A stretch of 64,000 nt of DNA from Robiginitomaculum sp. (GCA_015485155.1 WFUF01000002.1:69735-133734); one strand, 5' to 3'. Shown: positions 8,511-57,833, counted from the stretch's first letter. Notes: generated by a model from the letters alone, not told the origin. A program made the numbers and translations.

Positions 8511-8682
8511 TTACGATGCTTTGTATAAAACAGGATATGATGAATTCGATTAAATATCTACAATCAGACAAGAAGCCGCATATTACGCTAATTGAAAAAA
8601 CCGCCGTTACAATATATTAAACAGAAGGGCATGGGGCCTGATTTTGAAGTGCGAACAGGTGACAGGAAAACAGGGAAGTAAA

Positions 8683-10239
8683 ATGGCAAAAACAGTTAAC
8701 AGTATTCTGATCGTTGGTGGCGGCACTGCCGGGTGGATGTCAGCGGCGTATTTAGCCAGGCACCTTGGTTCTGATTTACCTAATGGAGTAAAAATCACAT
8801 TGGTTGAATCCAGTGATATCCCGGTCATTGGCGTTGGCGAGGGGACATTTCCCTCCATAAGAACCACTTTGGGGCTTATTGGTATTGATGAGGCGGAATT
8901 CATTAGAAAAGCCGATGCAACCTTCAAACAGGGAATTAAATTCGTAAACTGGGAAACTGATCCGGCGACAACCTCTGAGCATTTTTATTATAATTTGTTT
9001 GAGAATCCGCACATGATCCAAAATAGCGAGGATCTGGCTCCTTATTGGGCATTTCGGCATTCTAAGTATAACCCGTCATTTTCTGATTCGGTCTCTTTTC
9101 AGCATGGTATCTGTGAGAGCAAGAAAGCTCCAAAACAACAAAGCGACAAAGGCTTTTTTGCGCCGATGAATTATGCCTATCACCTTGATGCCGGTAAATT
9201 GGCCGAGCTGCTAAAGGAACATTCCTTGCGCCTTGGCATTAAGCATTTGATCGGAACCGTGGATAAGGTAAATGTTAAGGAAAATGGTGAAATTAAATCG
9301 GTTCTGCTGAAGGGCGGCAAGACACTAGAAGCAGATATGTTTATCGACTGCACAGGATTTGCGGCGCTTTTGATTGACAAGACCATGGGCTCAAAGCGCA
9401 AGCCCGTTGATGATGTCTTGTTCGTTGACAGGGCGTTGGTCGCACAAGTCCCTTATGAAGATAAAATGTGCGCGATTGCCAGCAGCACTCTATCAACAGC
9501 TCAAGAGGCCGGTTGGCTATGGGATATCGGATTGCGGCATCGCCGGGGTACGGGGCATGTCTATTCCAGTCGCCATTCTACTGATGAGCAGGCAGAGCGG
9601 GTTTTGGAAAAATACCTTGGCGCATCAGCCAAAAAAGCATCGCCAAGATTGCTGAAAATGCAAACCGGTTACCGGGAGAAACACTGGGTAAAGAATTGTG
9701 TGGCCGTAGGATTATCTGGTGGGTTTTTAGAGCCATTGGAGGCCACTGGCATTGTGTTGATTGAAGCAGGAATTAGAATGATCGGAGACTATTTTCCTCG
9801 CCATGGCGATTTTGATATAGTAGCCAGACATTATAACCGGGCAATGCGTGAACGTTATGAAGATGCGGTTTCTTTTGTGAAACTACACTATTATCTTAGT
9901 CGTCGGGAAGACAATGCATTTTGGATTGATAACCGGGATCCGTCATCGGTACCTGACTATTTGAAGGAAAAACTGGAATTGTGGCGATATCGTTTGCCAC
10001 GGGCGTCTGATTTTCATTCAAGCAACAGATTGTTCAGCCATGAGATATATCAATATATTCTGCTAGGCATGGGTTACAAGCCGGATCTGATAGCCAATCA
10101 GTCGTCATTTCCATTTATTCGTCAGGCTGATAACGAATTCCAGAATATACAAATAGCCAAACAAAACGCCTTGCGGGTTATGCCGGATCATCGTGAGCTG
10201 ATCGAAGCTGCTCAGGACGAAAATTTTTCATTCGGCTAG
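8683..10239 (+). CDS. Flavin-dependent (tryptophan-type) halogenase family protein
   Basis: FAD fold ILIVGGGTAGWMSAAYLA, then GVGEGT, then FKQGIKFVNW (conserved Lys), GWLWDIGL (a WxWxIP-like motif), and GFLEPLEATG. ATG 8683 follows AGGGAAG. The track start at 8644 is a TTG. Confidence 0.85.
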   Translation: MAKTVNSILIVGGGTAGWMSAAYLARHLGSDLPNGVKITLVESSDIPVIGVGEGTFPSIRTTLGLIGIDEAEFIRKADATFKQGIKFVNWETDPATTSEHFYYNLFENPHMIQNSEDLAPYWAFRHSKYNPSFSDSVSFQHGICESKKAPKQQSDKGFFAPMNYAYHLDAGKLAELLKEHSLRLGIKHLIGTVDKVNVKENGEIKSVLLKGGKTLEADMFIDCTGFAALLIDKTMGSKRKPVDDVLFVDRALVAQVPYEDKMCAIASSTLSTAQEAGWLWDIGLRHRRGTGHVYSSRHSTDEQAERVLEKYLGASAKKASPRLLKMQTGYREKHWVKNCVAVGLSGGFLEPLEATGIVLIEAGIRMIGDYFPRHGDFDIVARHYNRAMRERYEDAVSFVKLHYYLSRREDNAFWIDNRDPSSVPDYLKEKLELWRYRLPRASDFHSSNRLFSHEIYQYILLGMGYKPDLIANQSSFPFIRQADNEFQNIQIAKQNALRVMPDHRELIEAAQDENFSFG

Positions 10240-11212: not shown

Positions 11213-13065
11213 TCAAATTCTCCATCAGGATCTGGTTCTACAAGTCCAATTATCTTTGCCTCTGGAAAGGCCTGTAATACGGTTTGCACCTCCATGTCAG
11301 ACATAATTTTTGTATGTTCACGTTGTTTTGCCTCGCGGCGCGCATTGGCAACTGTTACTTTGCCTTTGGCTGTGTGCTCCTGATCAAGCAGCCAGCGCTG
11401 GCCAGTGATTTGCTGTAATTGCCGTGACAGCTCAGCCGCCAGATTGGGCGGCGCACCATCTTCGGCAGAAAAACTTATGGCACCTGGTTGATAGCTGATA
11501 AGCCGGACATATTGCTCCAATTGATTTAACAGGTGCAATTCACGGTTTTCTTCCAGATATTGTAATAATTGCTCAAATGATTGCGGTGCATCCGGTGTTA
11601 GCACGGTGGCAGAAACTGGTTCTGCCGCAGATTCTATACGCGCTGGCTGGGCCGCAGATGATGTGTTGGTAGATGGCGGTTTGGCTGAGTAATCTGATGT
11701 TTGTGGCTGTGGCCGGGGATTGGTCATCAGGTTTTGTGTGCCCGGTACCGATTTGTGCGCCTGTGTCTGGGTCTGGGTGCCGACAGCTGGTTTTTCCCTG
11801 GAGTTTGCCGGTGTGTCTGTTTGTCCAAGCAATAATCTGGCCGAGTGTTCAGGCCCCGGCAGGTTCATTGCCACACAAAGCCTGATCAGGGCCATTTCAG
11901 TAGCGGCCAGTGAATCGGAGGCAATCCTGATCTCGTTGGCGGCCTTTAGTAATATCTGCCAGCTTCGCGATAATTGTCCCATGGAAAATTCATCAGCAAG
12001 CGTGCGCACCAATTGTGCACCGGAGCCATATTGCGATAAATCTGCCGCCTCGCCCAGAGCTTTGGCCCGAGTGACCTGATGGCAATGATCAAGAAGGTCG
12101 GAGACAATCACTACAGGATCCGCACCCAAATCGTATTGTTCGCGCAATTCGGTAAGTACAGCTGATATATCAGCGCGTAATGCCAGAGCCAATAATTGTA
12201 AAATCCTGCCCCTGTCGGCCAGTCCAAGCATAATTCTGATGTTCTCGGCATCCACTTCTTCTGTGCCGTCAGCCTGCACCAGCGCCTGATCAAGAATGGA
12301 TAGTGCATCGCGTACCGAGCCTTCGGAGGCTCTGGCGATCAAAACCAGCCCTTCGCGAGATACTTTGCGGTTCTCTGTTTTGCAGATGCGTTGTAAATGC
12401 TCAACCATTGTCTCAGTATCGACTCTGGACAAATCAAAACGCTGACAGCGTGAAAGTATTGTAACTGGTACTTTTCTGATCTCGGTGGTGGCCAGAATGA
12501 AAATAGCGTGAGGCGGCGGCTCTTCCAAGGTTTTTAGCAGAGCATTAAATGCCGGTTTGGACAGCATATGCACTTCGTCAATGATATAAACCTTATAGCG
12601 CGCTGATACTGGTGCATAGCGCACACTGTCCAGTATTTCCCTGATATCGCCAATACCGGTGTGACTGGCGGCATCCATTTCCATCACATCCATATGCCGG
12701 GATGCAGATATCTCCGCGCAATGGATGCCAGAAGGGGATAATTGCATTGATGGCGCATCAATCTCATCGCTTTGATAGTTCAATGCCCGCGCCAGTAATC
12801 GTGCAGTAGTGGTTTTGCCAACTCCCCGAACCCCGGTCAGCATAAAGGCATGAGCTATTCGCCCTGCTGCAAAGGCATTGGTCAGGGTGTGAACCATTGT
12901 CTGCTGCCCGATAAGGTCATCAAAATTATCAGGCCGGTATTTGCGTGCCAATACCTGATAGGCAGGCGGTGCGCTTGGCATTGCGCTATCGTCAAACATG
13001 CTGCCCTGATCAGGATCAATCGGATCAGGTTGCAGGTTGTCGGTATCAGGATCAGATTCGCTCAT
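11209..13065 (-). CDS. dnaX: DNA polymerase III subunit gamma/tau
   Basis: Walker [10 protein letters not shown] and clamp-loader boxes ([14 protein letters not shown]). I start it at ATG 13065 because the track's extension to 13197 runs through the SRP RNA gene. Confidence 0.93.
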
Positions 13066-28845: not shown

Positions 28846-29697
28846 ATGAACTTTCTAAAATCCATCTATATAGTGTTTTACATCTCGGCAGCATTGGCCA
28901 TTTCGATAATGGCAGTTGTGAAATTGCTAGGTGATGGCAATGCAATTGCATGGAGCGGGGTTTTGTTAAGTACGGCTCCGTTCATGATGGTGCTAAGCTG
29001 GCTGATGCTGGCAAAGCCTGCTGCAAGAACCAGCCGAAATCTGCCCGTTATTACCCTGTTGGCTGTGGCAGGTCTGGTGTTTTCCCTGTGGGGCTGGAAT
29101 CAGCAACAGGCTGACTTTTTAAGTGTGAAGCTGGCGGGTGCCGGACTGGTTGGGTTTTTGATCTATGTGTTTTGGTATTCAGCCTATAATAATCGTAGCA
29201 GCAGGATAATTCTCGGGCAATTATTACCCAACTTTTCCTTACAAGCCACCAATGGCCAGATTGTAACCAACAAGGATTTTATCGGCAAAGCCAGTATATT
29301 GATGTTTTATCGGGGTAATTGGTGCCCGCTATGCATGGCGCAGATAAAGGAAGTTGCCAGACAATATGATCAATTGCGCGAGGCAAATGTGCGGGTTGCG
29401 CTAATCTCACCGCAACCACACAAAAACACCATGAAGCTGGCGGAAAAATTTCATGTGGGTTTTGAGTTTTACATCGATGAAGGCAATCAGGCTGCCAGAA
29501 CGCTGGGTGTGTCGCAATCCTTTGGGGTGCCTATTGGTTTGCAGGCTTTGGGCTATGACAGTGAAACCGTATTGCCGACCGTGGTTATTACTGATGCCAA
29601 GGGTAATGTGATCTGGCTGCACGAAACCGATAATTATCGCATACGGCCTGAGCCGGAGACATTCTTACAGATATTGCGTGAACACGGGATTGGCTAA
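28846..29697 (+). CDS. Membrane-anchored peroxiredoxin-like/redoxin protein
   Basis: About 4 N-terminal TM helices followed by a thioredoxin-fold domain with FYRGNWCPLC (CxxC). GGAGG RBS. Confidence 0.75.
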   Translation: MNFLKSIYIVFYISAALAISIMAVVKLLGDGNAIAWSGVLLSTAPFMMVLSWLMLAKPAARTSRNLPVITLLAVAGLVFSLWGWNQQQADFLSVKLAGAGLVGFLIYVFWYSAYNNRSSRIILGQLLPNFSLQATNGQIVTNKDFIGKASILMFYRGNWCPLCMAQIKEVARQYDQLREANVRVALISPQPHKNTMKLAEKFHVGFEFYIDEGNQAARTLGVSQSFGVPIGLQALGYDSETVLPTVVITDAKGNVIWLHETDNYRIRPEPETFLQILREHGIG

Positions 29698-36381: not shown

Positions 36382-36531
36382 TCAAGTGCTGATGGACGAC
36401 ACTTACAGCAGATTTTGAACACAATTGCCAAGGTTTTGCCACATCTGCCGCAAAAATACCTTGGCTTGGTCGCGCTTAAGGCACTTGCCCTTGCTTCTAA
36501 TTGCCCCACACCAACAAAAGGGGACGTTGAG

Positions 36532-38613
36532 ATGCAAATAATCACCATTCACAGATTACGCAAATTTAGCCTATTACTTGGGCTTACCTTGCTCAGTTTT
36601 TGGTTATTTTCCTGCTCGGCTCGCGCGGAAACAGCCACCATGACATTGGATGAAGCCAAATCGGGAAGCTTATTGTTTCGCACCGATCAACCGGGTCAAT
36701 ATATACCAGCTCCAGCTTTGGCAACAGATGTGCAAATCAAAGTCACTGGGCCGATTATTCGCACCCGCCTCACCCAAAAGTTTATCAATAATTCCGCGCA
36801 AACAGTTGAGGGGATTTATCTGTTTCCTCTGCCGCAAGATGCTGCGGTTGATCGTTTGGTGATGATAATAGGAGGCCGGGTGATAGAGGGCAAAATCCAA
36901 GAAAAACGTCAAGCCCGAAAAACTTACGACACTGCCAAAGAGGCCGGAAGAAAAGCATCACTTGTCGAGCAAATACGCCCAAACATGTTCACCAATTCGG
37001 TGGCCAATATCGGCCCCAAAGAAACCATTACCGTCCAAATCGAATATCAGGGTACTGCAAAGCTACGCGATGGACGGTATTCCTTGCATTTCCCTTTGAT
37101 AGTAGCACCGCGTTTTAACCCCAATGCCGAACAATCCCCCACATTTGAAAATCAAGTACCCAGAATAACCGATCCGGCGCAAATACCAAAGGGTGTTCGT
37201 TTACAGGTTCAATTAACCGCCGGCTTTGACTTGGACGACATTAATAGCCCCAGCCATAAAATCAGCATTTCTGGGGATCGCCAAAAATCCATCACTATTG
37301 ACGGCCCGGTTCCAGCGGATCGGGACTTTATCCTAAACTGGATACCCAAAGTCCAAAGCAAACCAGCCGCGCAGCTGTTTACCGAACAGAAAAATGGATC
37401 AACTTATCTGCTGGGTTTAATTCAAGCTCCAACCGGGATGGGGGAACAAACATTCAATCTGCCCCGAGAAGCAGTATTTGTGATCGATAATTCTGGCTCC
37501 ATGGCTGGCAAATCCATACGCCAAGCTCGCACCGCTTTGTTGCTGGCCTTAGATGGTTTGCGTGCAAGTGATCGTTTTAATGTCATCGCCTTTGAGAATG
37601 TTACCGATAAACTGTTCACACAAAGTGTGGTCGCAAACCGTGAGAACTTGGCCACAGCCAAGCGGTTCGTCTCGCGCTTAAATGGAGATGGCGGAACAGT
37701 GATGCTTCCGGCTCTACGTGCTGCATTTCGCACCACGGCCCCCGCGCGCGAAAACCAGGTGCGGCAAGTAATCTTCATCACAGATGGCCAGATCAGCAAT
37801 GAAGGTGAATTATTTGCAGAAATCAGACGTGAGTTAGGCCAAAGCCGTTTGTTCATGATCGGAATAGGCGCCGCCCCCAACCGTTATTTTTTGAGCCGTG
37901 CTGCCAGATTAGGTCGCGGTACCAACGTCACTATATCAGACATCAATCAAGTAGAGCAAAAAATGACCGAAATGCTGATGAAATTAGAGCGCCCGGTCAT
38001 GCAAAACCTGACTGTCTCGTTTCCCGGAGCCACCCAGCCAATTATCTGGCCCAATCCATTGCCTGATCTTTATGCCAATGACCCAGTGGTCATAGTGGCA
38101 AAAATTGATGAAGCACCACAGAACCTACTTGTATCTGGACAATTCTCCCATGCCAAATGGCAGGCTAACCTTGATTTATCCTCAGCAAATTCTGGAACTG
38201 GCATATCACAACTATGGGCGAGGGCAAAAATTGCTAGCCTCGAGGAAAGTCGGTTTGATGGCATTCATCCAAGCCATATTGATGCCCAAATTTTACAAAC
38301 TGCTTTGGCCCATCACCTGGTAAGCAGAGTGACCTCATTAGTGGCGGTTGATGTCACCCCGCAAAAAATGTTTGAGGCTGAGGCTGTCACACAAGTTTTG
38401 CCCCTTGCTTTGCCCGATGGCTGGAGCCCGTTGAAAGTAAAACCCCGAACCACTTCCATAACCCCGCCATCGCTCAATCCGGTGAATGATACCGGCATAA
38501 CCCTGCCGGCCACGGCCAGCCCCCATGAAATAAAATTGATACTTGGACTTTTAAGCTTGGCGCTGGCATTGGCACTTTTTGGACGCTGGTTACCCGCAAG
38601 GTCAAAGTCATGA
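36532..38613 (+). CDS. Marine-proteobacterial sortase target protein (VIT + VWA domains, C-terminal sorting signal)
   Basis: Signal peptide, a VIT-like N-terminal region, and a VWA domain with MIDAS motif (VIDNSGSM). The C-terminus has LPATAS, a hydrophobic helix (LILGLLSLALALALF) and a basic tail (RWLPARSKS). Confidence 0.85.
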   Translation: MQIITIHRLRKFSLLLGLTLLSFWLFSCSARAETATMTLDEAKSGSLLFRTDQPGQYIPAPALATDVQIKVTGPIIRTRLTQKFINNSAQTVEGIYLFPLPQDAAVDRLVMIIGGRVIEGKIQEKRQARKTYDTAKEAGRKASLVEQIRPNMFTNSVANIGPKETITVQIEYQGTAKLRDGRYSLHFPLIVAPRFNPNAEQSPTFENQVPRITDPAQIPKGVRLQVQLTAGFDLDDINSPSHKISISGDRQKSITIDGPVPADRDFILNWIPKVQSKPAAQLFTEQKNGSTYLLGLIQAPTGMGEQTFNLPREAVFVIDNSGSMAGKSIRQARTALLLALDGLRASDRFNVIAFENVTDKLFTQSVVANRENLATAKRFVSRLNGDGGTVMLPALRAAFRTTAPARENQVRQVIFITDGQISNEGELFAEIRRELGQSRLFMIGIGAAPNRYFLSRAARLGRGTNVTISDINQVEQKMTEMLMKLERPVMQNLTVSFPGATQPIIWPNPLPDLYANDPVVIVAKIDEAPQNLLVSGQFSHAKWQANLDLSSANSGTGISQLWARAKIASLEESRFDGIHPSHIDAQILQTALAHHLVSRVTSLVAVDVTPQKMFEAEAVTQVLPLALPDGWSPLKVKPRTTSITPPSLNPVNDTGITLPATASPHEIKLILGLLSLALALALFGRWLPARSKS

Positions 38614-39206
38614 GCGCCGAACAGGCCTTACACCGTGGTCGGCGCACTCTGGCATTGTTTATAATGCTGGCTGGAATAATTTTACTTTTACAAGGTGGGT
38701 TCACTGTTGCCAAAGCACATTTGTCTCAAACTTTATTGCAACAATCATGGGACAAAACATTGGGCAGTCAAGACAATACACGGCCATGGCCGTGGGCAGA
38801 CACTTGGCCTGTAGCTAAAATTCAAGCCCCGCGTTTAGGCAAAAGCAATATTGTATTAGCTGAAGCCGGCGGGGAGGCTTTAGCTTTCGGCCCATCACTC
38901 CTAAATGCCGGTGGGCGCCCGGGGAAAGCAGAAGATATTTTGATATCTGCTCATAAAAATACCCATTTTTCATGGCTAAAAGATCTAAAATCAGGTGATA
39001 CGCTTACCTTACAAGACCCGACAGGTGATGAAAAAAGCTATCAGGTCACCGGAATGCAGGTGGTGCGATTTGATGCCTCTGGCATTAGTGCCCAGAATAA
39101 AGGGAACCGATTGGCTCTTATCACCTGTTATCCGTTTGATGCCGGATTTGGCGGGCCGTTGCGATACATTGTATGGGCTGAAGCTGTGCCAAGCGCGACA
39201 AGCTAA
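38610..39206 (+). CDS. Gram-negative (marine proteobacterial / class GN) sortase
   Basis: N-terminal TM, His (ISAHKNTHF), the catalytic TLxTC-type motif LALITCYPF, and Arg (PLRYIVWAE). ATGA overlap with the target gene. Confidence 0.85.
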   Translation: MSAEQALHRGRRTLALFIMLAGIILLLQGGFTVAKAHLSQTLLQQSWDKTLGSQDNTRPWPWADTWPVAKIQAPRLGKSNIVLAEAGGEALAFGPSLLNAGGRPGKAEDILISAHKNTHFSWLKDLKSGDTLTLQDPTGDEKSYQVTGMQVVRFDASGISAQNKGNRLALITCYPFDAGFGGPLRYIVWAEAVPSATS

Positions 39207-41089: not shown

Positions 41090-41377
41090 CTACAAATGTT
41101 TGTTCAGATCCTGGCGGCCAAGAATTCGGATGATATCAACTGTTTGCTCGTTTACTTGATAGTAAATTATGTCACTACCACAGGGACAGCTTCTATATTC
41201 TCGATCAAGATTTTCTACGATTGAAAACAAGTACGGCTGCTCGGCTATAATATAAAATTGATCAAGAAAATTGTAATGATATTTATCCGCTTGGATTTCG
41301 CCATATTTGGTAACCTCCCAATGATAAATACGCCACAAATCATCTTCGGCTTGTGGCGTAAGCCTATATTTTCGCAT
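41090..41377 (-). CDS. parE: Type II toxin, ParE/RelE family
   Basis: 95 aa, MRKYRLTPQAEDDLWRIYHW..., the typical ParE N-terminus. It overlaps the upstream antitoxin gene by 14 nt. Confidence 0.85.
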   Translation of the reverse strand: MRKYRLTPQAEDDLWRIYHWEVTKYGEIQADKYHYNFLDQFYIIAEQPYLFSIVENLDREYRSCPCGSDIIYYQVNEQTVDIIRILGRQDLNKHL

Positions 41378-41615
41378 CCTGCTTTAATCTGGTTTTGAAT
41401 TTAACCAACAAATCCTTTGGATCAGTTTCGGAAATTCCGCTCTCAACACCTTTGCTAAGTAATGCTTGCAAGTTTGAAATAGTATTTTCACGCTGTCTAA
41501 CCTGACGTAAAACAGAATTTACAACATCGCTATGGCTCTTGAATTCTTTACTGGCGACTTGTTCTTCAATCCAGCTCTGGTTCGGCTCTGTAAATGAAAT
41601 TGTCGTGCGAGGCAT
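41364..41615 (-). CDS. parD: Type II antitoxin, ParD/CopG ribbon-helix-helix family
   Basis: 83 aa, MPRTTISFTEPNQSWIEEQV...SDVVNSVLRQ (RHH fold pattern). Located upstream of parE. Confidence 0.8.
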   Translation of the reverse strand: MPRTTISFTEPNQSWIEEQVASKEFKSHSDVVNSVLRQVRQRENTISNLQALLSKGVESGISETDPKDLLVKFKTRLKQDAKI

Positions 41616-51772: not shown

Positions 51773-52510
51773 TTAGCCAAGCCATCCGGCAGCACGGATT
51801 TTAGGTGCATAGGTGCGGCTTACTGGAACCTTGGTTTGATCCCTTAATACAATATGTAATTTACCCTGATCCCGTTTTATTTGTTCAATGCCCTCTTTTG
51901 CCACCCACCATGAACGGTGCACCTGCATGCCATCATAATCACCAAGCTCGGAAATGGCATCGGCAAGCCGCATCAGAATTAAATCTGATCCCTGGGCTGT
52001 GTAGATGCGTAAATAATGGTCTTCGGACGAAACTGCGTATAAGCTGCCATCAGATATTTTTGCAGGGATCCTGGCAAAAAACCGTGCTCCATTATCAGAT
52101 GGTTTATCAGGAAATGCCCGGTCAGAGAGAAAACTGACCCCGCTAACCGCCACAGATACAACCCAGATCAAAAAATACAAATTTGGCCAGTGGACTATGG
52201 AAACCGGATGACCGGTTGCAAGCTGTATCAGTAATACAGCAGGAAATACCAGCGCCGCCATTATAAAGGATGCCAATAGATAAAACCAGAAGCTGGACAG
52301 TTTGGGTAAATTGTTTTTTAGCCTCGGGCCAATGAATCTTGATGCCATCCACCCCCATGTCAACAATCCTGTCCAATACGCCCATGCGCCGACAATTGGC
52401 AAATGACTGGTAGCTCCAAACGGTGACATTAATGCTAATATGGTCCCGATGAATACAATCAGGATTATATCCTTATTAGTATATGCATTGAGCCAAAACC
52501 GGGCGAACAT
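51773..52510 (-). CDS. Membrane-anchored LytTR-domain DNA-binding protein
   Basis: About 4 N-terminal TM helices plus a C-terminal LytTR domain (SSEDHYLRIYT..GSDLILMRLADAISEL...MQVHRSWWV). There is no receiver domain. Confidence 0.8.
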   Translation of the reverse strand: MFARFWLNAYTNKDIILIVFIGTILALMSPFGATSHLPIVGAWAYWTGLLTWGWMASRFIGPRLKNNLPKLSSFWFYLLASFIMAALVFPAVLLIQLATGHPVSIVHWPNLYFLIWVVSVAVSGVSFLSDRAFPDKPSDNGARFFARIPAKISDGSLYAVSSEDHYLRIYTAQGSDLILMRLADAISELGDYDGMQVHRSWWVAKEGIEQIKRDQGKLHIVLRDQTKVPVSRTYAPKIRAAGWLG

Positions 52511-52685
52511 TCATGTTTCCTGACTGTTTGATCTTCAAAAAATGCTTAATGTGCAGCTCAAGTCAAGTAAAACAAAGGCAACAGGGCTGATTTTTGCAAA
52601 ACCTGCGTAAAAATACAATCGGCCTCGCAATATTCGGCAAAATGGCGTATTGTGGAGACTCGTTTTAGAAATAAAGGGCGTAAGC

Positions 52686-53909
52686 ATGCGTATAATTGTT
52701 TTGATTGCAGCTTTCTTTGCTGTGATTGCAGGTGTCGGCACCGTAATAATAAACAAGGGCGGCACAAAGAATGTTTCGTTTGTTGAAGCTTCTGAAGCTG
52801 CTGATGTTGTTTCTGAAGAAGTCAGTTCTCCTGCACCTGCTTCTGCCGATGCAGCACTGCGTGCTTTTTATGATCAACAGCAAATAGCTCTGCCCAAAGC
52901 CCCCGCAGGCCCGCCATTACCGGCCTCAAATACGGTTTTGCAGCGTATTGCCTTTGGTTCGTGCCAAACAAGCTGGAAGCCCATCCCTATTTTGGATCAG
53001 GTGGCTGCCGATAATCCCGACCTGTTCATCTATCTGGGTGACAATGTTTATGGGGATGAGCGCGCCGGTAATGCATTATTGCCTAATTTGCGCAAACAAT
53101 ATGCCGATCTTGCCAAACGGCCAGCCTTTGCCCGCTTGCGGCAGCAAACCCCAATGATGAGCATATGGGATGATCACGACTATGCCATGAATGATGCTGG
53201 CGGGGACTTTGCTTTTAAGTATTTTGCTAAAAAAGTTTTTCTTGAGTTCTGGAATGAGCCGAAAGACAGCATACGCCGCAAACGTGAAGGGCTTTATGAC
53301 GCCAAGATTTTTGGCGTTGAGGGCCAAAGAGTACAGATCATTATGCTTGATACTAGGTATTTTCGTTCATCGCCCCTGATCCCTACCGATGAGCGTGGAG
53401 CCAAGGGCAAGGAGCGTTATTTATCGTCTTTTGATCCAAATATGACCATTTTGGGCGAAGAACAATGGCAATGGTTTGAAGAGCAATTACAGCAACCTGC
53501 CGAGATCAGGCTGATTATTACCTCCATTCAGGTGCTGGCTGCCGATCATGGCTGGGAGGCGTGGGATGAATTTGTACCACAGCGGGATAAATTCTTCGCC
53601 ACGGTGAAAAACAGTGGCGCCAAAGGGGTGCTGATTGTTTCTGGTGATCGCCATATGGCGTCTTTTTATCGTAAGGATGATGCCACGGACTATGCTCTTT
53701 ACGAGTTTACTTCTTCGGCTCTGAATATGAGCTTTACCGACAAAATTACCGAATATGACAGCTTGCAACTGGTTGAAGGTGTGGCTGCAAATAATTATGG
53801 CATGATTGATATTGACTGGCCGGGGCGCAAACTTTCCATGCAAATAAAAGGTGAATCTGGCGATATATTGCGCAAGCTGGAGGTGAAGTTTTCGGAAATT
53901 GGCCTGTAG
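52686..53909 (+). CDS. phoD: PhoD-family alkaline phosphatase/phosphodiesterase
   Basis: Metallophosphatase motifs FGSC, IYLGDNVYGD, WDDHDY and SGDRH. N-terminal hydrophobic anchor with no twin-arginine motif. Confidence 0.85.
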   Translation: MRIIVLIAAFFAVIAGVGTVIINKGGTKNVSFVEASEAADVVSEEVSSPAPASADAALRAFYDQQQIALPKAPAGPPLPASNTVLQRIAFGSCQTSWKPIPILDQVAADNPDLFIYLGDNVYGDERAGNALLPNLRKQYADLAKRPAFARLRQQTPMMSIWDDHDYAMNDAGGDFAFKYFAKKVFLEFWNEPKDSIRRKREGLYDAKIFGVEGQRVQIIMLDTRYFRSSPLIPTDERGAKGKERYLSSFDPNMTILGEEQWQWFEEQLQQPAEIRLIITSIQVLAADHGWEAWDEFVPQRDKFFATVKNSGAKGVLIVSGDRHMASFYRKDDATDYALYEFTSSALNMSFTDKITEYDSLQLVEGVAANNYGMIDIDWPGRKLSMQIKGESGDILRKLEVKFSEIGL

Positions 53910-54035
53910 GAAACTACAGGCACCTCACATTTGTTTGATGATTTTTTCAGTTTTGTGAGGGGACATCTGCAAAAAATTTGCTAGGGTAATCCGAAGCGGG
54001 TTATGTGGACCCGGCTAGTTAAAAGGAAACTATTC

Positions 54036-54356
54036 ATGAACGCTCCTGTTAAAATTTCTATTGCCGCAACTACTGGTATTGCGTTTGCGCTTGGCGCTGG
54101 TGTTACTGCTGCCAGTGCGGCTCCTAAAGAAAAATGTTACGGAATTGCGCTGGCTGGTGAAAACGGTTGCGCAAATTTAAGCAAAACTCATTCCTGCCAG
54201 GGAACATCGACGGTTGATTATGCTATTGATGACTGGAAAATGGTTCCAAAAGGCACTTGTGCAACCACTGTGATCACCGATGAAAATGGTGTTGAGCGCA
54301 AAGGCATGAGCAAAAAAGAGGCCAAGGCCGCGATGAAGGCCAATCAGCAACAATAA
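54036..54356 (+). CDS. bufA1: BufA1-type bufferin precursor (DUF2282, Sec signal peptide, 4 Cys)
   Basis: ATG 54036 follows AAAGGAAA. The signal peptide ends ...VTAASA|APKEKC. The core has Cys in EKCYG, GENGCA, HSCQG and PKGTCA contexts. It lies immediately upstream of a DUF692 gene. Confidence 0.85.
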
Positions 54357-54367
54357 TTTGCTGCACC

Positions 54368-54393
54368 CGGGAGGTTATCTCCTCTCGCTTTTT
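54368..54393 (+). terminator. Intra-operon hairpin plus U-tract between bufA1 and bufB (attenuator or partial terminator)
   Basis: A 7-bp stem CGGGAGG / CCTCTCG (one G-U pair) with a 6-nt loop is followed by CTTTTT. It begins 12 nt after the bufA1 stop. Confidence 0.5.
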
Positions 54394-54418
54394 CGGGTGG
54401 CTTTCCGGGTGTTTCTCC

Positions 54419-55282
54419 ATGTCAAAGCCCACAAAACCAAAGTCCATAAACCTTCCCGCCATTGCCGGCTTGGGGTTGAAGCCTGAGCACTATCACGAAG
54501 CCATGGCTTGTGATACGGATCGGATCTGGTTTGAGGTGCATCCTGAGAATTATATGGTGGATGGCGGGCCGCGTTTGGCGTGGCTTGGGGGTTTTTCGGA
54601 AAAATTTGCGCTGTCATTTCATGGCATCGGCCTGTCGCTTGGCGGTTTGGATCGCCCTGACAGGCAGCATTTATCGCGGCTTAAATCTCTGGTGGATCGG
54701 TTTAACCCGGTTCAGGTCTCAGAACACCTTGCATGGTCGCGTTTAGGTGATGTTTATTTTGCCGATCTGTTGCCACCGCCTGCAACAAAATCCTCCCTGG
54801 ACAGGCTGGTTGATCATATTGATGAAACGCAGGAGTTTTTGAACCGTAAATTGCTAATTGAAAACCCGTCCCTGTATTTGCCGATTCCGGGGTTTGCAGA
54901 ATTACCGCAGCTCTATGTAGAGGCTGCAAGAAGAAGCGGGGCTGAGCTATTGTTTGATCTAAATAATATTGCCGTATGTGCTGCTAATGTTTTATTGCCA
55001 ACTGATCGCTGGCTGGATGTGGTGCCAGCAGAAATGGTCAAGGAAATTCATTTAGCCGGAGCAACAGCGCGCAAAATTTCCGGCGAGACGGTTATGATCG
55101 ACAGCCATGATGCACCAGTAAGTGATCAGGTGTGGCAATTGCTCGAGCAGTTTATTGCTGCGAACGGGGCAAGACCGGTATTGATCGAACGTGATGGTAA
55201 TATACCAGGCTTTTCCGAATTAATGGCCGAACATGAGCGTGCCGCAAGTATTTTATCAGGCGCGGTGGCGGCCAATGGATAA
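54419..55282 (+). CDS. bufB: MNIO (multinuclear non-heme iron oxidative enzyme, DUF692) BufB
   Basis: DUF692 TIM-barrel motifs are present: FEVHPENY, VSEHLAWS, IENPS, EIHLAG, IDSHD and IERDGN. Confidence 0.9.
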   Translation: MSKPTKPKSINLPAIAGLGLKPEHYHEAMACDTDRIWFEVHPENYMVDGGPRLAWLGGFSEKFALSFHGIGLSLGGLDRPDRQHLSRLKSLVDRFNPVQVSEHLAWSRLGDVYFADLLPPPATKSSLDRLVDHIDETQEFLNRKLLIENPSLYLPIPGFAELPQLYVEAARRSGAELLFDLNNIAVCAANVLLPTDRWLDVVPAEMVKEIHLAGATARKISGETVMIDSHDAPVSDQVWQLLEQFIAANGARPVLIERDGNIPGFSELMAEHERAASILSGAVAANG

Positions 55283-56027
55283 GGATACAGAATTTTACGC
55301 TAAAATGGCGCAAGCAATTTTGAGCATGGATGATGAGCCGGTAAAATCATTATTTGGGCCATTTGCCAATCGTATAGATGCCCATCGGGGTAGTTTTATT
55401 ACCGGGGCACAAAATGCCATTGTCAGCGCATATCCGGTTGTAGCCAGACTTGTTGGTGACGAATACATGCGGGCCATGGCGCAGGCATTTGTACGAAAAT
55501 CACCCCCCAAATTGGCAAGCCTTACGCTTTATGGCGATGATTTTCCTGCGTTTTTGCGGGAATTTGCGCCAGTGCAAAAGGATCTGCCATGGCTTTCGGC
55601 GGTGGCGGAGCTGGATCGTGCATGGTTTGCGGCCTATGCTGCTAAGGATGATGAGGTTTTGCGGATTGGCGATGACAGGCATGGTATTGACCTTGCTTTG
55701 CTGGCTCCGGGTCTGGTTGCCTCAGTACAGCTTCTTCGGTTCAAAATTCCGGCATATTCAATCTGGCGCACCAATAAGGTGGATGAGAATGTGCAGGCTG
55801 TGCACATGCAAAAAGGTGCTGAATGGGCGGTGCTGTGGCGACAGGACAATCAGATTTTTCACGCCGGAATAAGTCGTGCCGAATACGTGTTTTTGAACAA
55901 TATTGGAGGCGGGCTTAGTTTTGTACAATCGTTCGCAGAATGTGTTCGCTATGATCAGGACTTTGATTTGCAGCAACAGTTTTTACGCTGGTTGTCAGCG
56001 GGATTATTTATGGAGCTTAAACCATGA
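55275..56027 (+). CDS. bufC: DUF2063-domain MNIO partner protein BufC
   Basis: ATG 55275 overlaps the bufB end by 8 nt. The N-terminal region (YRGS/HRGSF...AL...YPVV..LVGDEYM..A..F) is typical of DUF2063 proteins encoded next to DUF692 genes. Confidence 0.8.
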   Translation: MDKDTEFYAKMAQAILSMDDEPVKSLFGPFANRIDAHRGSFITGAQNAIVSAYPVVARLVGDEYMRAMAQAFVRKSPPKLASLTLYGDDFPAFLREFAPVQKDLPWLSAVAELDRAWFAAYAAKDDEVLRIGDDRHGIDLALLAPGLVASVQLLRFKIPAYSIWRTNKVDENVQAVHMQKGAEWAVLWRQDNQIFHAGISRAEYVFLNNIGGGLSFVQSFAECVRYDQDFDLQQQFLRWLSAGLFMELKP

Positions 56028-56521
56028 TCGCAAATATTGATAAACTGATACGCAAGTTTGAATGTTTTATTGCACCAATGGCTTCGCCGGTGGCTGATCT
56101 GATATTGCGTCTGGCCGTGGCCCATGTGTTTTTACTCTCAGGAATGGCCAAGCTTAAAAACCTGCAAGGTGCAGGTGATTTGTTTCAGTATGAATGGTTT
56201 TCCGATGAAAACTGGTGGATGCAATTGCTGGGCTTTGAGGAAATACCAAGAGTGCTGGCTATGATTTTGGCGGTGCTGTCTGCGGCTGCCGAGTTTGTTT
56301 TGCCCCTATTGCTGATTGTTGGGCTGTTTACCCGTTTTGCTGCCAGTGGCTTGATGGCGGTGGCGCTGGTGATTGTGGTTCTGGTGTATCCGGTGTGGAC
56401 TGAAGACGGGTTGGCGCTTTGGTGGTCAGAGCATTTATGGTGGGTCGGGTCATTACTGGCTTTGATGGCTTTTGGCGGACAAAAATTCTCTGCGGATCAT
56501 TGGCTTAAATCCCGCAAATAG
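56024..56521 (+). CDS. DoxX-family integral membrane protein
   Basis: 165 aa with four hydrophobic helices and a DoxX-like start (DLILRLAVAHVFLLSGMAKL). ATGA overlap with bufC. Confidence 0.83.
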   Translation: MIANIDKLIRKFECFIAPMASPVADLILRLAVAHVFLLSGMAKLKNLQGAGDLFQYEWFSDENWWMQLLGFEEIPRVLAMILAVLSAAAEFVLPLLLIVGLFTRFAASGLMAVALVIVVLVYPVWTEDGLALWWSEHLWWVGSLLALMAFGGQKFSADHWLKSRK

Positions 56522-56530
56522 GTGGGCTCT

Positions 56531-56559
56531 TTCTTACTTGCTCAAAATGAGCATATAAT
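56531..56559 (+). promoter_or_regulatory. Candidate sigma-70 promoter upstream of sucC
   Basis: TTCTTA-N17-TATAAT: a perfect -10 and a weak -35, about 110 nt upstream of the sucC ATG. Confidence 0.3.
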
Positions 56560-56669
56560 TTAACATCTGCCGTTGCTTCTCTTTGCGAACACTCGTACAT
56601 CCCTGTTAATCCTTCCTTATCGCCGGATGGTTGATATTCGGTGTGGTATTACGCGCAAAAGGGGCTTTT

Positions 56670-57833
56670 ATGAATATTCATGAACATCAGGCCAAAGCGG
56701 TCTTGCGAGAATTTGGAGCGCCATTGGTTGATGGTTATCCGGCTTTTTCAGTGGATGAGGCGGTAGAGGTGGCAAAAAAACTGCCCGGGCCGATTCGGGT
56801 GGTAAAAGCGCAAATCCATGCAGGTGGCCGTGGAAAAGGCGGCGGTGTCAAAATTGCCAAATCGCTTGAGGAAGTAAAAACTTACGCCAGTGAAATCCTT
56901 GGCATGCAATTGGTTACCCATCAAACAGGCCCAGAGGGCAAGAAAGTCGGGCGATTATTTATTGAGGCGGGTGCAGATATTGCTGACGAGTTTTATCTTT
57001 CAATGCTGGTGGATCGCGAGTCGAGCCGGGTTGCATTTGTAGTCTCTACAGAAGGGGGCATGGATATTGAGGCTGTGGCGGAGGAAACTCCGGAGAAAAT
57101 TCACACTTTTACCGTTGATCCGGCTACGGGCATTATGCCCCATCACGGGCGGGCGGTTGCGCGCGCGCTTAATCTTTCTGGTGCTGCTGCCAAACAAGCG
57201 GGTAAATTAGCTGGCATTTTGTACAATGCATTTGTGACCAAGGACATGAGCCTGCTGGAGATCAACCCGTTGGTTCTTACCGGGGGCGGTGATCTGGTGT
57301 GTCTGGATGCCAAGGTCAGTTTTGATGGCAATGCTTTATATCGGCACCCGGACATTGAGGCACTTCGCGATGAAAGCGAGGAAGATCCCAAAGAATTGGA
57401 AGCCGGAAAATATGACCTTAGTTATATCTCCTTAGATGGTGAAATTGGCTGCATGGTAAATGGTGCGGGCCTGGCGATGTCGACCATGGATATTATCAAG
57501 CTCTATGGCTCGTCTCCTGCTAATTTTTTGGATGTTGGTGGCGGTGCCACCAAGGAAAAGGTAACGGCAGCCTTCAAAATTATTACTTCTGATTCCAATG
57601 TGAAGGGTATTCTGGTCAATATTTTTGGCGGGATCATGCGCTGTGATGTCATTGCCGAGGGCGTGATCGCGGCGGTTAAGGAAGTGGGGCTAAAGGTTCC
57701 CTTGGTGGTTCGTCTTGAAGGCACCAATGTAAAACGCGGCAAGGAAATTATCGAAAGTTCCGGCCTTGATGTCATATCCGCTGATGATCTGGACGATGCC
57801 GCCAGAAAAATAGTCGCTGCGGTAAAGGGGTAA
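56670..57833 (+). CDS. sucC: Succinate--CoA ligase (ADP-forming) beta subunit
   Basis: [16 protein letters not shown]... ATP-grasp domain plus ligase-CoA domain. Confidence 0.97.

Follow-up and report, generated by a model that had tools for sequence, protein, structure and literature searches.

A predicted Buf1-type bufferin operon with a His-type BufA precursor in a Robiginitomaculum-related alphaproteobacterium

In a 64,000-nt window of Robiginitomaculum sp. DNA (GCA_015485155.1, WFUF01000002.1:69735-133734), four co-directional, closely packed genes occupy positions 54036-56521 on the + strand in the order bufA-bufB-bufC-bufD. The first, bufA (54036-54356), encodes a 106-aa DUF2282/BufA1 precursor (Pfam PF10048, E=3.4e-22) and is followed by bufB (54419-55282), which encodes a 287-aa MNIO (DUF692) iron-dependent oxidase (PF05114, E=1.6e-79). 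The 250-aa product of bufC (55275-56027) is a DUF2063 partner of the PME1 type (PF09836, E=5.3e-16), and that of bufD (56024-56521) is a 165-aa DoxX-family integral membrane protein (DoxX, PF07681, E=2.4e-14). As described in an earlier note on this DNA, the genes share one strand, bufB and bufC overlap by 8 nt, and bufC and bufD meet at an ATGA. Profile-HMM searches, suggested there as a check, placed all four proteins above the Pfam gathering thresholds (bits against cut-off: DUF2282/BufA1, 78.6/22.4; MbnB_TglH_ChrH, 267.3/25; DUF2063, 59.1/27.2; DoxX, 54.2/23.6). Each element of the gig/bufferin architecture that had been proposed (DUF2282, MNIO, DUF2063 and DoxX) was tested and is present. 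Independent gene calls in a GenBank MAG (GCA_027006155.1, contig JALTKR010000020.1) give the same products of 106, 287, 250 and 165 aa.

The bufA ATG at 54036 is preceded by a Shine-Dalgarno-like AAGGAAA ~8 nt upstream. An in-frame ATG at 54003 offers an alternative start that has no Shine-Dalgarno-like site, and conservation across four related loci begins exactly at 54036, which supports our choice of start. Comparison with orthologues gave dN/dS values of 0.04-0.17 where dS was unsaturated, and the buf genes are therefore under purifying selection. At least five related genomes carry the whole operon, although the junctions on both sides of it vary.

The cluster lies between phoD (upstream) and sucCDAB (downstream), a placement given in the earlier note on which the Pfam scan and the record gene calls agree. 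Among the ORFs covered by the Pfam scan (~25 across the window) or by the gene calls (~10 kb on each side), we found no metal sensor, sigma/anti-sigma pair or copper efflux gene, in keeping with what had been claimed, and no other copper gene; the remaining ORFs of the window were read by eye. The C. vibrioides buf1 cluster, in contrast, has an adjacent SigF/NrsF pair. The four-gene set is the core of bufferin BGCs, and the missing regulator is not unusual, because only some of the Buf1 BGCs carry sigma/NrsF genes (Antoine et al. 2025). Obligatory co-transcription with phoD or sucCDAB was rejected by gene order at two related loci: at L002 an opposite-strand glycosyltransferase gene separates phoD from bufA, and at L003 a 419-aa gene lies between bufD and sucC.

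Upstream of bufA we identified a conserved element, TCACATTnnTTTGAT-N11-TTTTGTGAG (53925..53959, +), which contains the inverted repeat TCACA...TGTGA. When five loci are aligned, its blocks show no variation, although the Buf proteins of these loci are only 57-87% identical. The exact element occurs once per locus, always 5′ of bufA, in 7/7 Robiginitomaculum-clade loci; L029, a more distantly related His-type locus, lacks it. It is kept in L001 and L002 despite a different upstream neighbour (shown for L002). A search of the window with two mismatches allowed found an exact match at the bufA site only, so the element has no regulon partners within the window. Judged from this pattern of conservation, the element is a candidate operator for some regulator, and it provides a concrete regulatory handle for clusters that have no sigma/anti-sigma pair. 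A membrane LytTR protein encoded nearby (51773-52510) is one candidate for the protein that would bind it.

Immediately downstream lies a putative promoter (53960..53987, +), consisting of a -35-like GGGACA, 14 nt and a -10-like GCTAGGGT. The GACA and TTG-CTA of this region are invariant in the five-locus alignment. The Caulobacter housekeeping promoter consensus is TTGACGS-N10-14-GCTANAWC, and the layout at 53960..53987 appears to resemble it. An E. coli-type sigma-70 scan found no promoter 5′ of bufA.

The gap between bufA and bufB can form an RNA hairpin (54363..54412, +) with an MFE of -26.8 kcal/mol (z=-3.9), and no shuffled sequence folds as well. Its 3′ arm covers GGGTG, the sole SD-like sequence 5′ of bufB. 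A terminator scan flagged an alternative, a small terminator-like hairpin at 54368-54387 (-10.7 kcal/mol) that is followed by CTTTTTC. L024, L002 and L029 have hairpins at this position too, that of L029 being a canonical GC stem with U5. These features suggest a role as an attenuator or coupling element. An Rfam scan of 52400-56800 matched no RNA family.

The best NCBIfam model for BufB was MNIO_BufB at 300.3 bits, compared with 179 for HvfB and 64 for MbnB. This score is ~10 bits short of the MNIO_BufB equivalog cut-off of 310, which we treat as subtype divergence and not as exclusion from the Buf1 type. Sequence searches of the PDB matched BufB to 3BWW, TglH and MbnB. Predicted iron ligands fill all nine MbnB-defined positions (H68, H103, E148, D180, N183, H211, D228, H230 and E257). 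In the alignment with MbnB, for which the ligand list is published (PMC9060507), BufB H103, E148, D180, N183, H211, D228 and H230 correspond to H90, E133, D163, N166, H192, D208 and H210, and the alignments with 3BWW and TglH show conservation of BufB H68 and E257. D231 is a candidate for the catalytic base. Six "iron-ligand motifs" had been quoted in the earlier note, and all six occur in the translations, but one of them, FEVHPENY, carries no conserved ligand: the position of its His (H41) has Ala in 3BWW, a homologue that binds iron, and H41 is therefore not a conserved iron ligand. Three true ligands lie outside that list, in FHGIGLSLGG (H68) and FDLNNIAV (D180 and N183).

An AlphaFold2 model of BufC (pLDDT 91.1, pTM 0.85) gave as its top Foldseek matches 3DEE, a solved DUF2063/PME1 partner (E=5.5e-5), and TglI (8hi7_A, E=5.6e-4), with weak matches to MbnC and to the TbiB1 RRE. 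As modelled, BufC pairs a helical N-domain with a beta3-alpha3 RRE-like domain at its C-terminus. The structural matches and the PF09836 score uphold the assignment of the third gene as the DUF2063 partner. A PDB sequence search with BufC gave no match, and a 250-aa product identical to BufC has been deposited. BufD shows hydrophobic segments in its hydropathy profile, and its Pfam score agrees with the DoxX identity given to the fourth gene. The NCBIfam scores of these two proteins were 25 bits for BufC against HvfC (cut-off 142) and 48.4 bits for BufD against HvfX (cut-off 80).

The first gene had been described as encoding a 106-aa protein with a Sec signal and a DUF2282-like core containing four Cys. 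All of this held: the PF10048 match covers profile positions 1-49 of 53, the length of 106 aa lies within the 80-120 aa expected of a Buf1-type precursor, the N-terminus is hydrophobic, the quoted Cys motifs (EKCYG, GENGCA, HSCQG and PKGTCA) occur in the translation and the four Cys are invariant in alignments of 22 and 23 sequences. The predicted Sec-type signal peptide comprises residues 1-28 (54036-54119), with K6 in the n-region, an h-region at residues 7-25 (by hydropathy) and an A-S-A c-region motif that is kept in relatives. Cleavage is predicted between ASA and AP, before A29; we placed this site by eye, guided by the AXA motif and by how well it is kept in relatives. Neither a lipobox nor a twin-arginine motif is present at the N-terminus. 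The 78-aa core contains CysI (C34), CysII (C45), CysIII (C54) and CysIV (C75), together with an invariant H52. In the low-confidence AlphaFold2 model of BufA (pLDDT 56), two strands alone agree with published Buf1. A PDB sequence search with BufA as a profile gave no match. The NCBIfam scan of BufA also returned no match, and neither did that of P0082 and P0090, two proteins that NCBI names BufA1; the scan is uninformative for want of a usable BufA1 HMM.

The buf1ABCD cluster of C. vibrioides (CCNA_03363-03366; Leprevost et al. 2024, PMC11626156) matches this one in all four genes and in their order. Like Buf1, BufA has a Sec signal peptide, four Cys, a Trp at CysIII+13 and a WKMV strand. The Cys register, which we took for Buf1 from the residue numbers printed in papers (Cys12/23/31/52, Trp44), was to be compared with that of characterised BufA1 peptides according to the earlier note. 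The number of Cys and the CysI-CysII and CysIII-CysIV spacings (11 and 21) agree, but the CysII-CysIII spacing does not: BufA has 11/9/21 and Buf1 11/8/21, equivalent to one extra residue in the CysII-CysIII loop. The 8-residue spacing of Buf1 belongs to a loop of the type CxAGxGT[ST]C, whereas the 9-residue spacing here comes with the invariant His. A and Q follow the Cys predicted to be modified here, as against K and A in Buf1. At its C-terminus BufA has a Lys/Ala-rich helical tail, compared with GSLxxLxRDLP in the relatives with a spacing of 8. The source also differs, being a marine Robiginitomaculum-related MAG.

The CysII-CysIII insertion is common to a large subtype that NCBI likewise names BufA1. 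On sequence grounds we place BufA in this "His-type" BufA1 subtype, in which the CysII-CysIII spacing is 9 and the residue at CysIII-2 is an invariant His. Across 23 representatives with a mutual identity of <=50%, His52 is as invariant as the four Cys. Among profile matches ordered by their similarity to a His-type query, 119/120 have the CysIII-adjacent His, as do 82 of the best 150 representatives at 50% identity in the same kind of ordering. We rejected the 9-residue His loop as a rare-clade marker: it is the majority type among matches ranked by similarity to the BufA query. We found no biochemical characterisation of the 9-residue His-loop subtype in the papers that we consulted, and the only structurally characterised DUF2282 bufferin that we found, C. 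vibrioides Buf1, is without the CysIII-adjacent His. That this His occurs in a large share of DUF2282 precursors is the point most useful to the field, more so than the locus itself, and a His-type representative such as BufA is a sensible target for metal-site chemistry. A 7,223-aa protein (P0155) that looked like a giant 22-repeat "bufferin" was a compositional false positive, with 4 Cys only and no CYG motif.

Taken together with the analogy to C. vibrioides Buf1, from which we infer the pathway by homology, the four genes very probably form a Buf1-type bufferin (captophorin) biosynthetic operon, bufABCD. In C. vibrioides, BufB1 and BufC1 are necessary and sufficient for the formation of two thiooxazoles, and Buf1 is exported by Sec, carries a CysI-CysIV disulfide and binds Cu 1:1 with a KD of ~1e-15 to 1e-20 M (PMC11626156). 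The 5-thiooxazole assignment has been confirmed (10.64898/2025.12.15.693703; PMC13097082). The chemistry given in the earlier note (Cys converted to 5-thiooxazole in an exported copper chelator) agrees with PMC11626156 and 10.64898/2025.12.15.693703.

In the proposed pathway, transcription of the operon would be driven by its own promoter 5′ of bufA, and the hairpin after bufA would probably raise the precursor-to-enzyme ratio or couple bufB translation to that of bufA. By homology to C. vibrioides BufB1/BufC1, the iron- and O2-dependent BufB would act with BufC in the cytoplasm, converting C45 and C54 of BufA to 5-thiooxazoles by four-electron oxidations. The modified precursor would then be exported by Sec and cut after Ala28 by signal peptidase, and a C34-C75 disulfide would form in the periplasm, as expected from its homologue. 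The 78-residue product is likewise predicted to remain periplasmic, to chelate Cu(I)/Cu(II) through thiooxazole N/S and to buffer copper stress; its role, taken from the family, is most likely to soak up excess copper. BufD (DoxX) would be an accessory membrane protein. More speculatively, His52 beside CysIII may supply an extra ligand. A tentative extension of the proposal, which we hold to be rather unlikely, is that the His-type metal site joins two thiooxazoles and a His imidazole, so that coordination geometry, metal selectivity or redox behaviour could differ from Buf1, and that the operon in this lineage answers to a non-ECF regulator via the conserved TCACA-N24-TGTGA operator.

A stronger departure from the copper-buffering model, and a clearly improbable one, is that the same machinery serves another metal or another role. 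His52 and the two thiooxazoles would then serve Zn, Ni, Co, Cd or Hg, or the peptide would act in metal delivery or storage rather than copper detoxification, under the control of a regulator at TCACA...TGTGA and not of an ECF sigma factor. Roles with other metals are expected in the literature, for example from MerC fusions (Antoine et al. 2025) and in the discussion of PMC11626156. Such a role would fit the near-universal His of the His-type matches, a CysII-CysIII loop one residue longer than in characterised Buf1, and a conserved upstream element in a cluster with no sigma/NrsF pair among the ORFs scanned or gene-called, but thiooxazole S/N donors favour copper whatever the neighbouring residues. 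NCBI, moreover, calls His-type proteins simply BufA1. The only contextual metal clue that we found for His-type clusters comes from another such cluster, in which a metal-related YHS-domain gene lies directly 5′ of bufA; YHS domains are typically linked to copper.

Purifying selection wherever dN/dS was computable, synteny that is kept across a genus-level clade and conserved blocks in the promoter region all argue against a cluster that is naturally cryptic or silent, or that acts mainly via DoxX in sulfur or oxidative-stress protection, with a peptide that has little or no role in copper homeostasis. We consider this very unlikely. DoxX homologues elsewhere do protect against oxidative or sulfur stress (Antoine et al. 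2025), but DoxX is dispensable for Buf1 modification and function in Caulobacter (PMC11626156). Silence has a precedent in mmr of Microbulbifer, a related marine MNIO cluster that was neither expressed nor copper-responsive (PMC12538549), and gig is only a minor protection system in C. metallidurans.

Membership of another MNIO RiPP class, either the oxazolin/fontiphorin class with EGKCG repeats or a methanobactin-like copper-uptake chalkophore, is refuted by the precursor sequence and has next to no probability: MNIO enzymes are common to all classes, the EGKCG class also has DUF2063 and DoxX, and HvfB and MbnB are secondary matches of BufB, but BufA is a clear DUF2282 protein without EGKCG repeats or an MbnA-like core, HvfB and MbnB score far under their cut-offs (179 against 360 and 63.6 against 325 bits) with MNIO_BufB as the top match, and the record gene calls place no MbnA, MbnC, MbnT or exporter gene at the cluster. 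The Buf1-type assignment nevertheless leaves clear likenesses to both classes. EGKCG captophorins (oxazolin HvfABC of H. influenzae, fontiphorin and gonophorin; PMC13097082) draw their MNIO from the large subfamily that also includes BufB, pair it with a DUF2063/PME1 partner and often have DoxX, and they share the 5-thiooxazole chemistry and copper link of the Buf1 type. Their precursors have repeated EGKCG and many modified Cys, whereas BufA is predicted to fold as a DUF2282 mini-protein in which two Cys can be modified and a disulfide forms. In methanobactin MbnABC the MNIO shares the nine iron-ligand positions, and a Cys-derived heterocycle with a sulfur donor binds copper. This system differs in its oxazolone/thioamide chemistry, its MbnC partner, its dedicated transport genes and its product, a secreted chalkophore for copper uptake.

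The gig operon of Cupriavidus metallidurans, with its Legionella and Bordetella orthologues, also has four genes that include a DUF692 (MNIO) gene; we liken it to the buf cluster by description, and it is treated as orthologous to buf1ABCD by Leprevost et al. 2024 (PMC11626156). gig and its orthologues are metal-induced or BvgAS-controlled, whereas no regulator was identifiable for the buf cluster here.

With the Buf1-type reading, the cluster can confidently carry the label bufABCD in annotation, and under this label an uncultured marine relative of Robiginitomaculum among the alphaproteobacteria is predicted to make a periplasmic peptide that buffers copper. Published counts put MNIO-partner loci at more than 24,000, spread over about half of Pseudomonadota reference genomes. 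The buf cluster is an ordinary member of a huge, routinely named family with members in tens of thousands of bacterial genomes; the emphasis that the earlier note gave it was overstated, and the findings hold no surprise for a specialist. In newer Pfam, PF10048 is itself named "BufA1", and NCBI names the relatives of BufA "BufA1 family periplasmic bufferin-type metallophore".

The six-frame ORF list places four ORFs in the same direction on the + strand: bufA (54036-54356, with a second possible start at 54003; 106 aa from 54036), bufB (54419-55282; 287 aa), bufC (to 56027, with possible starts at 55233 and 55275; 250 aa in the record gene call) and bufD (56024-56521; 165 aa). With the starts used in an earlier note on this DNA, the 106-aa first product, the 8-nt overlap between the second and third genes and the ATGA shared by the third and fourth were all reproduced, and every peptide motif that it quoted was found in the translations. 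These starts are supported by an AAGGAAA ribosome-binding site ∼8 nt 5′ of the bufA ATG at 54036, by an alignment of five related loci in which conservation starts exactly at this codon, and by independent gene calls in a GenBank MAG that includes this DNA (GCA_027006155.1, contig JALTKR010000020.1, 611 kb), where the products are 106, 287, 250 and 165 aa. The stop–start overlaps at bufB/bufC and bufC/bufD suggest translational coupling, which would fit an enzyme–partner complex.

All four products scored well over the Pfam gathering thresholds: BufA with DUF2282, now named BufA1 (78.6 bits, E = 3.4e-22); BufB with MbnB_TglH_ChrH, the MNIO/DUF692 family (267.3 bits, E = 1.6e-79); BufC with DUF2063 (HvfC_N; 59.1 bits, E = 5.3e-16); and BufD with DoxX (54.2 bits, E = 2.4e-14). 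The four family assignments of the earlier note, including a DoxX membrane protein as the fourth product, were thus borne out by profile-HMM searches. The best NCBIfam model for BufB was MNIO_BufB (300.3 bits, against an equivalog cut-off of 310), followed by HvfB (179), ApyH (66), MbnB (64) and ChrH (37). BufC and BufD fell well under the HvfC and HvfX cut-offs. BufA had no NCBIfam match, and neither did proteins that NCBI itself names BufA1, NCBIfam having no usable BufA1 model. Family matches, NCBIfam scores and the precursor alignment together ruled out both a methanobactin cluster and an EGKCG/oxazolin cluster. We conclude that the cluster belongs to the Buf1 bufferin family, with all defining features that can be assessed in sequence present except for the 10-bit near miss of BufB, and that it very probably works as described for Caulobacter vibrioides. 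The bufferin-operon interpretation is supported by the Pfam matches, the precursor cysteines, the BufB ligands and the BufC fold. Buf1 bufferins belong to a wider class called captophorins (Gadgil et al. 2026), and the literature describes more than 24,000 loci pairing an MNIO with its DUF2063 partner (PME1), which occur in roughly half of the Pseudomonadota reference genomes, and thousands of Buf1 precursors. As the family is very large, the cluster is a further member of an already known family.

The predicted Sec signal peptide of BufA fits residues 1-28, as read from sequence and hydropathy, with Lys6 in the n-region, then a hydrophobic stretch and a c-region Ala-Ser-Ala; neither a lipobox nor a twin-arginine motif is present. 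The 78-residue core carries Cys34, Cys45, Cys54 and Cys75, which are invariant both in an alignment of 22 close and distant homologues and among 23 representatives of at most 50% mutual identity. Together with the family match, this upholds the claim of a four-Cys DUF2282-like core. The Cys register was compared with C. vibrioides Buf1 through the residue numbers printed in papers (Cys12, Cys23, Cys31 and Cys52, followed by Tyr13, Lys24, Ala32 and Val53; Trp44 belongs to the second strand). The register agreed in part: the CysI–CysII and CysIII–CysIV spacings are 11 and 21 in both proteins, whereas the CysII–CysIII spacing is 9 in BufA and 8 in Buf1. Both also share a Trp at CysIII+13 and a WKMV strand. 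The AlphaFold2 model of BufA was poor (pLDDT 56); nonetheless, it placed strands at residues 31-35 and 67-71, the same two strands as in the NMR of C. vibrioides Buf1.

BufB matched solved MNIOs by sequence (3BWW, E = 5e-26; TglH, 3e-9; MbnB, 3.9e-9). MbnB coordinates its iron through His54, His90, Glu133, Asp163, Asn166, His192, Asp208, His210 and Glu239 (PMC9060507), and seven BufB ligands align directly to MbnB in HMMER (H103, E148, D180, N183, H211, D228 and H230). H68 (in FHGIGLSLGG) and E257 (in IERDGN) line up with a conserved His and a conserved Glu, respectively, in the 3BWW and TglH alignments. The iron-ligand motifs proposed earlier are therefore present, except that the His of FEVHPENY (H41) is not a conserved ligand, since it aligns with Ala in 3BWW. 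By motif mapping, D231, just after H230, is a candidate catalytic base at the position of Asp249, the proposed base of FonB. A PDB sequence search with BufC gave no match. Its confident AlphaFold2 model (pLDDT 91.1, pTM 0.85) had as top Foldseek match NGO1945 (3DEE, a solved DUF2063 protein; E = 5.5e-5), then TglI, the TglH partner (E = 5.6e-4), with weak matches to MbnC and the RRE protein TbiB1; with the Pfam result, the first two fold matches agree with a DUF2063 partner. The modelled C-terminal half comprises three strands and three helices, as expected of an RRE-like domain.

We infer every step of the mechanism at the present locus from the C. vibrioides system. BufB and BufC would oxidise Cys45 and Cys54 of BufA to 5-thiooxazoles in the cytoplasm, and the modified precursor would then be exported by Sec and cleaved by signal peptidase after Ala28. 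A Cys34–Cys75 disulfide would form in the periplasm, where the 78-residue mini-protein would bind a single copper ion, with thiooxazole N and S as donors, and thereby buffer periplasmic copper. BufD would have an accessory role.

The extra CysII–CysIII residue of BufA is accompanied by a His two positions before CysIII. In contrast to the Buf1-like loop CxAGxGT[ST]C, the BufA loop is one residue longer and contains this His; its C-terminal tail is Lys/Ala-rich and predicted to be helical, whereas Buf1-like relatives have GSLxxLxRDLP. That the 9-residue His loop marks a small clade was rejected, as it was a common loop type in searches. When 1.84 billion 50%-identity representatives were searched exhaustively, 844 proteins matched BufA at E ≤ 1e-3; among the best 150, a ranking that favours relatives of the query, 82 had the 9-residue and 49 the 8-residue loop. 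A His-type profile built from 23 diverse sequences matched no fewer than 7,911 clusters (90% identity). Of the best 120 matches, 119, among them proteins from Ideonella, Curvibacter, Piscinibacter, Rubrivivax and Opacimonas, combined a 9-residue loop with a His at −2. Several of these are named ‘BufA1 family periplasmic bufferin-type metallophore’ by NCBI or UniRef. Within the His-type, His52 is as invariant as the Cys (23 representatives). In our literature search, C. vibrioides Buf1, of the His-less type, was the only DUF2282 bufferin whose chemical structure had been determined, and no biochemical work on the invariant-His subtype was found. A further reading, in which the His-type has a metal site of its own and is controlled by a non-ECF regulator, seems unlikely. 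We regard this subtype and a pair of conserved cis elements as mildly worth recording, as leads rather than findings. The searches also returned a 194-aa tandem double BufA1 (P0303) with a 7-residue loop (CGTAKHxC) and His again at −2. A 7,223-aa protein (P0155) with 22 stretches matching BufA was a false positive (only 4 Cys, no CYG motif), attributable to the C-terminal region of BufA, which is rich in T/V/D/N.

The nearest relatives are Robiginitomaculum MAGs (BufB 67-69% identity) and a metagenome contig (BufA 87%, BufB 72%). In all of them the gene order is LytTR (opposite strand), phoD, bufABCD, sucCDA(B). Both borders of the buf genes carry lineage-specific insertions: in locus L002, a glycosyltransferase-like gene (8650-9462, −) lies on the opposite strand between phoD and bufA, and L001 has the same ∼970-nt gap there; in L003, a 419-aa repeat protein (11767-13026, +) lies between bufD and sucC. 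As both border junctions vary, the four buf genes behave as a module in their own right. Their evolution is faster than that of their TCA-cycle neighbours (57-73% identity for BufB, BufC and BufD versus 91-97% for SucC and SucD), yet under purifying selection (dN/dS 0.04-0.17 where dS is unsaturated). Other His-type clusters occur in unrelated contexts, L029 with the canonical bufABCD order and L028 (4725-8129) with DoxX and YHS-domain genes directly before bufA, bufB and bufC, and an AraC-family gene nearby, upstream. YHS is a metal-binding domain, and the gene for it in this cluster supports, by context, a metal-related role for the His-type.

Among the window ORFs that were Pfam-scanned or gene-called, the rest being inspected by eye, neither a sigma/anti-sigma pair nor any metal sensor or gene for copper efflux was seen, and within that scope the earlier description of a cluster with no such adjacent gene holds. 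The core of a bufferin cluster is the precursor, MNIO, DUF2063 and DoxX genes, and sigma and NrsF genes occur in only some Buf1 clusters (Antoine et al. 2025), so their absence is not unusual. A 245-aa protein (51773-52510, −), encoded divergently from phoD and kept in synteny across all Robiginitomaculum-clade loci, combines an N-terminal hydrophobic (membrane) region with a LytTR DNA-binding domain at the C-terminus. Its targets could be phoD, its own gene or the buf operon; no link between it and the conserved element upstream of bufA was seen.

Upstream of bufA, the blocks TCACATT-NN-TTTGAT, TTTTGTGAG, GACA and TTG-CTA do not vary among five aligned loci. Their exact composite pattern was found a single time in each of the seven clade loci, always 5′ of bufA; the more distant L029 lacks it, and the window holds no second exact copy. 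Positions 53925-53959 are a candidate operator with the inverted repeat TCACA...TGTGA, and 53960-53987 a putative alphaproteobacterial housekeeping-type promoter. Between this promoter and the bufA ribosome-binding site lies a small 5′-UTR hairpin (53996-54014, GCGGGT...ACCCGG), with compensatory changes in relatives (GGGT/ACCC versus GGGC/GCCC) and a folding energy indistinguishable from shuffles (z = −0.4). The bufA–bufB gap contains an 18-bp hairpin (54363-54412, −26.8 kcal/mol, z = −3.9), the 3′ arm of which covers the sole SD-like sequence of bufB, or alternatively a small hairpin followed by CUUUUUC. Hairpins occur at the matching position in L024, L002 and L029, that of L029 being a canonical intrinsic terminator, and Rfam returned no known RNA family for the region. 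Such a hairpin would be expected if more precursor than enzyme were made, or if bufB translation needed ribosomes finishing bufA.

Elsewhere in the window, the sole gene loosely linked to copper among the ORFs scanned or gene-called lies 25 kb from the buf operon and encodes a membrane-anchored AhpC/TSA-redoxin protein (28846-29697, +) that weakly matches SCO1/SenC. At 36415-39206 (+), a 732-aa protein with VIT and von Willebrand A domains and, directly after it, a 198-aa sortase-domain protein look like a proteobacterial sortase/target pair. Overlapping ParE toxin and ParD antitoxin genes lie at 41090-41615 (−; Pfam E = 6e-12 and 2e-8), and a 531-aa tryptophan-halogenase-family flavoprotein (8644-10239, +; Pfam E = 1.4e-133) is encoded amid housekeeping genes.
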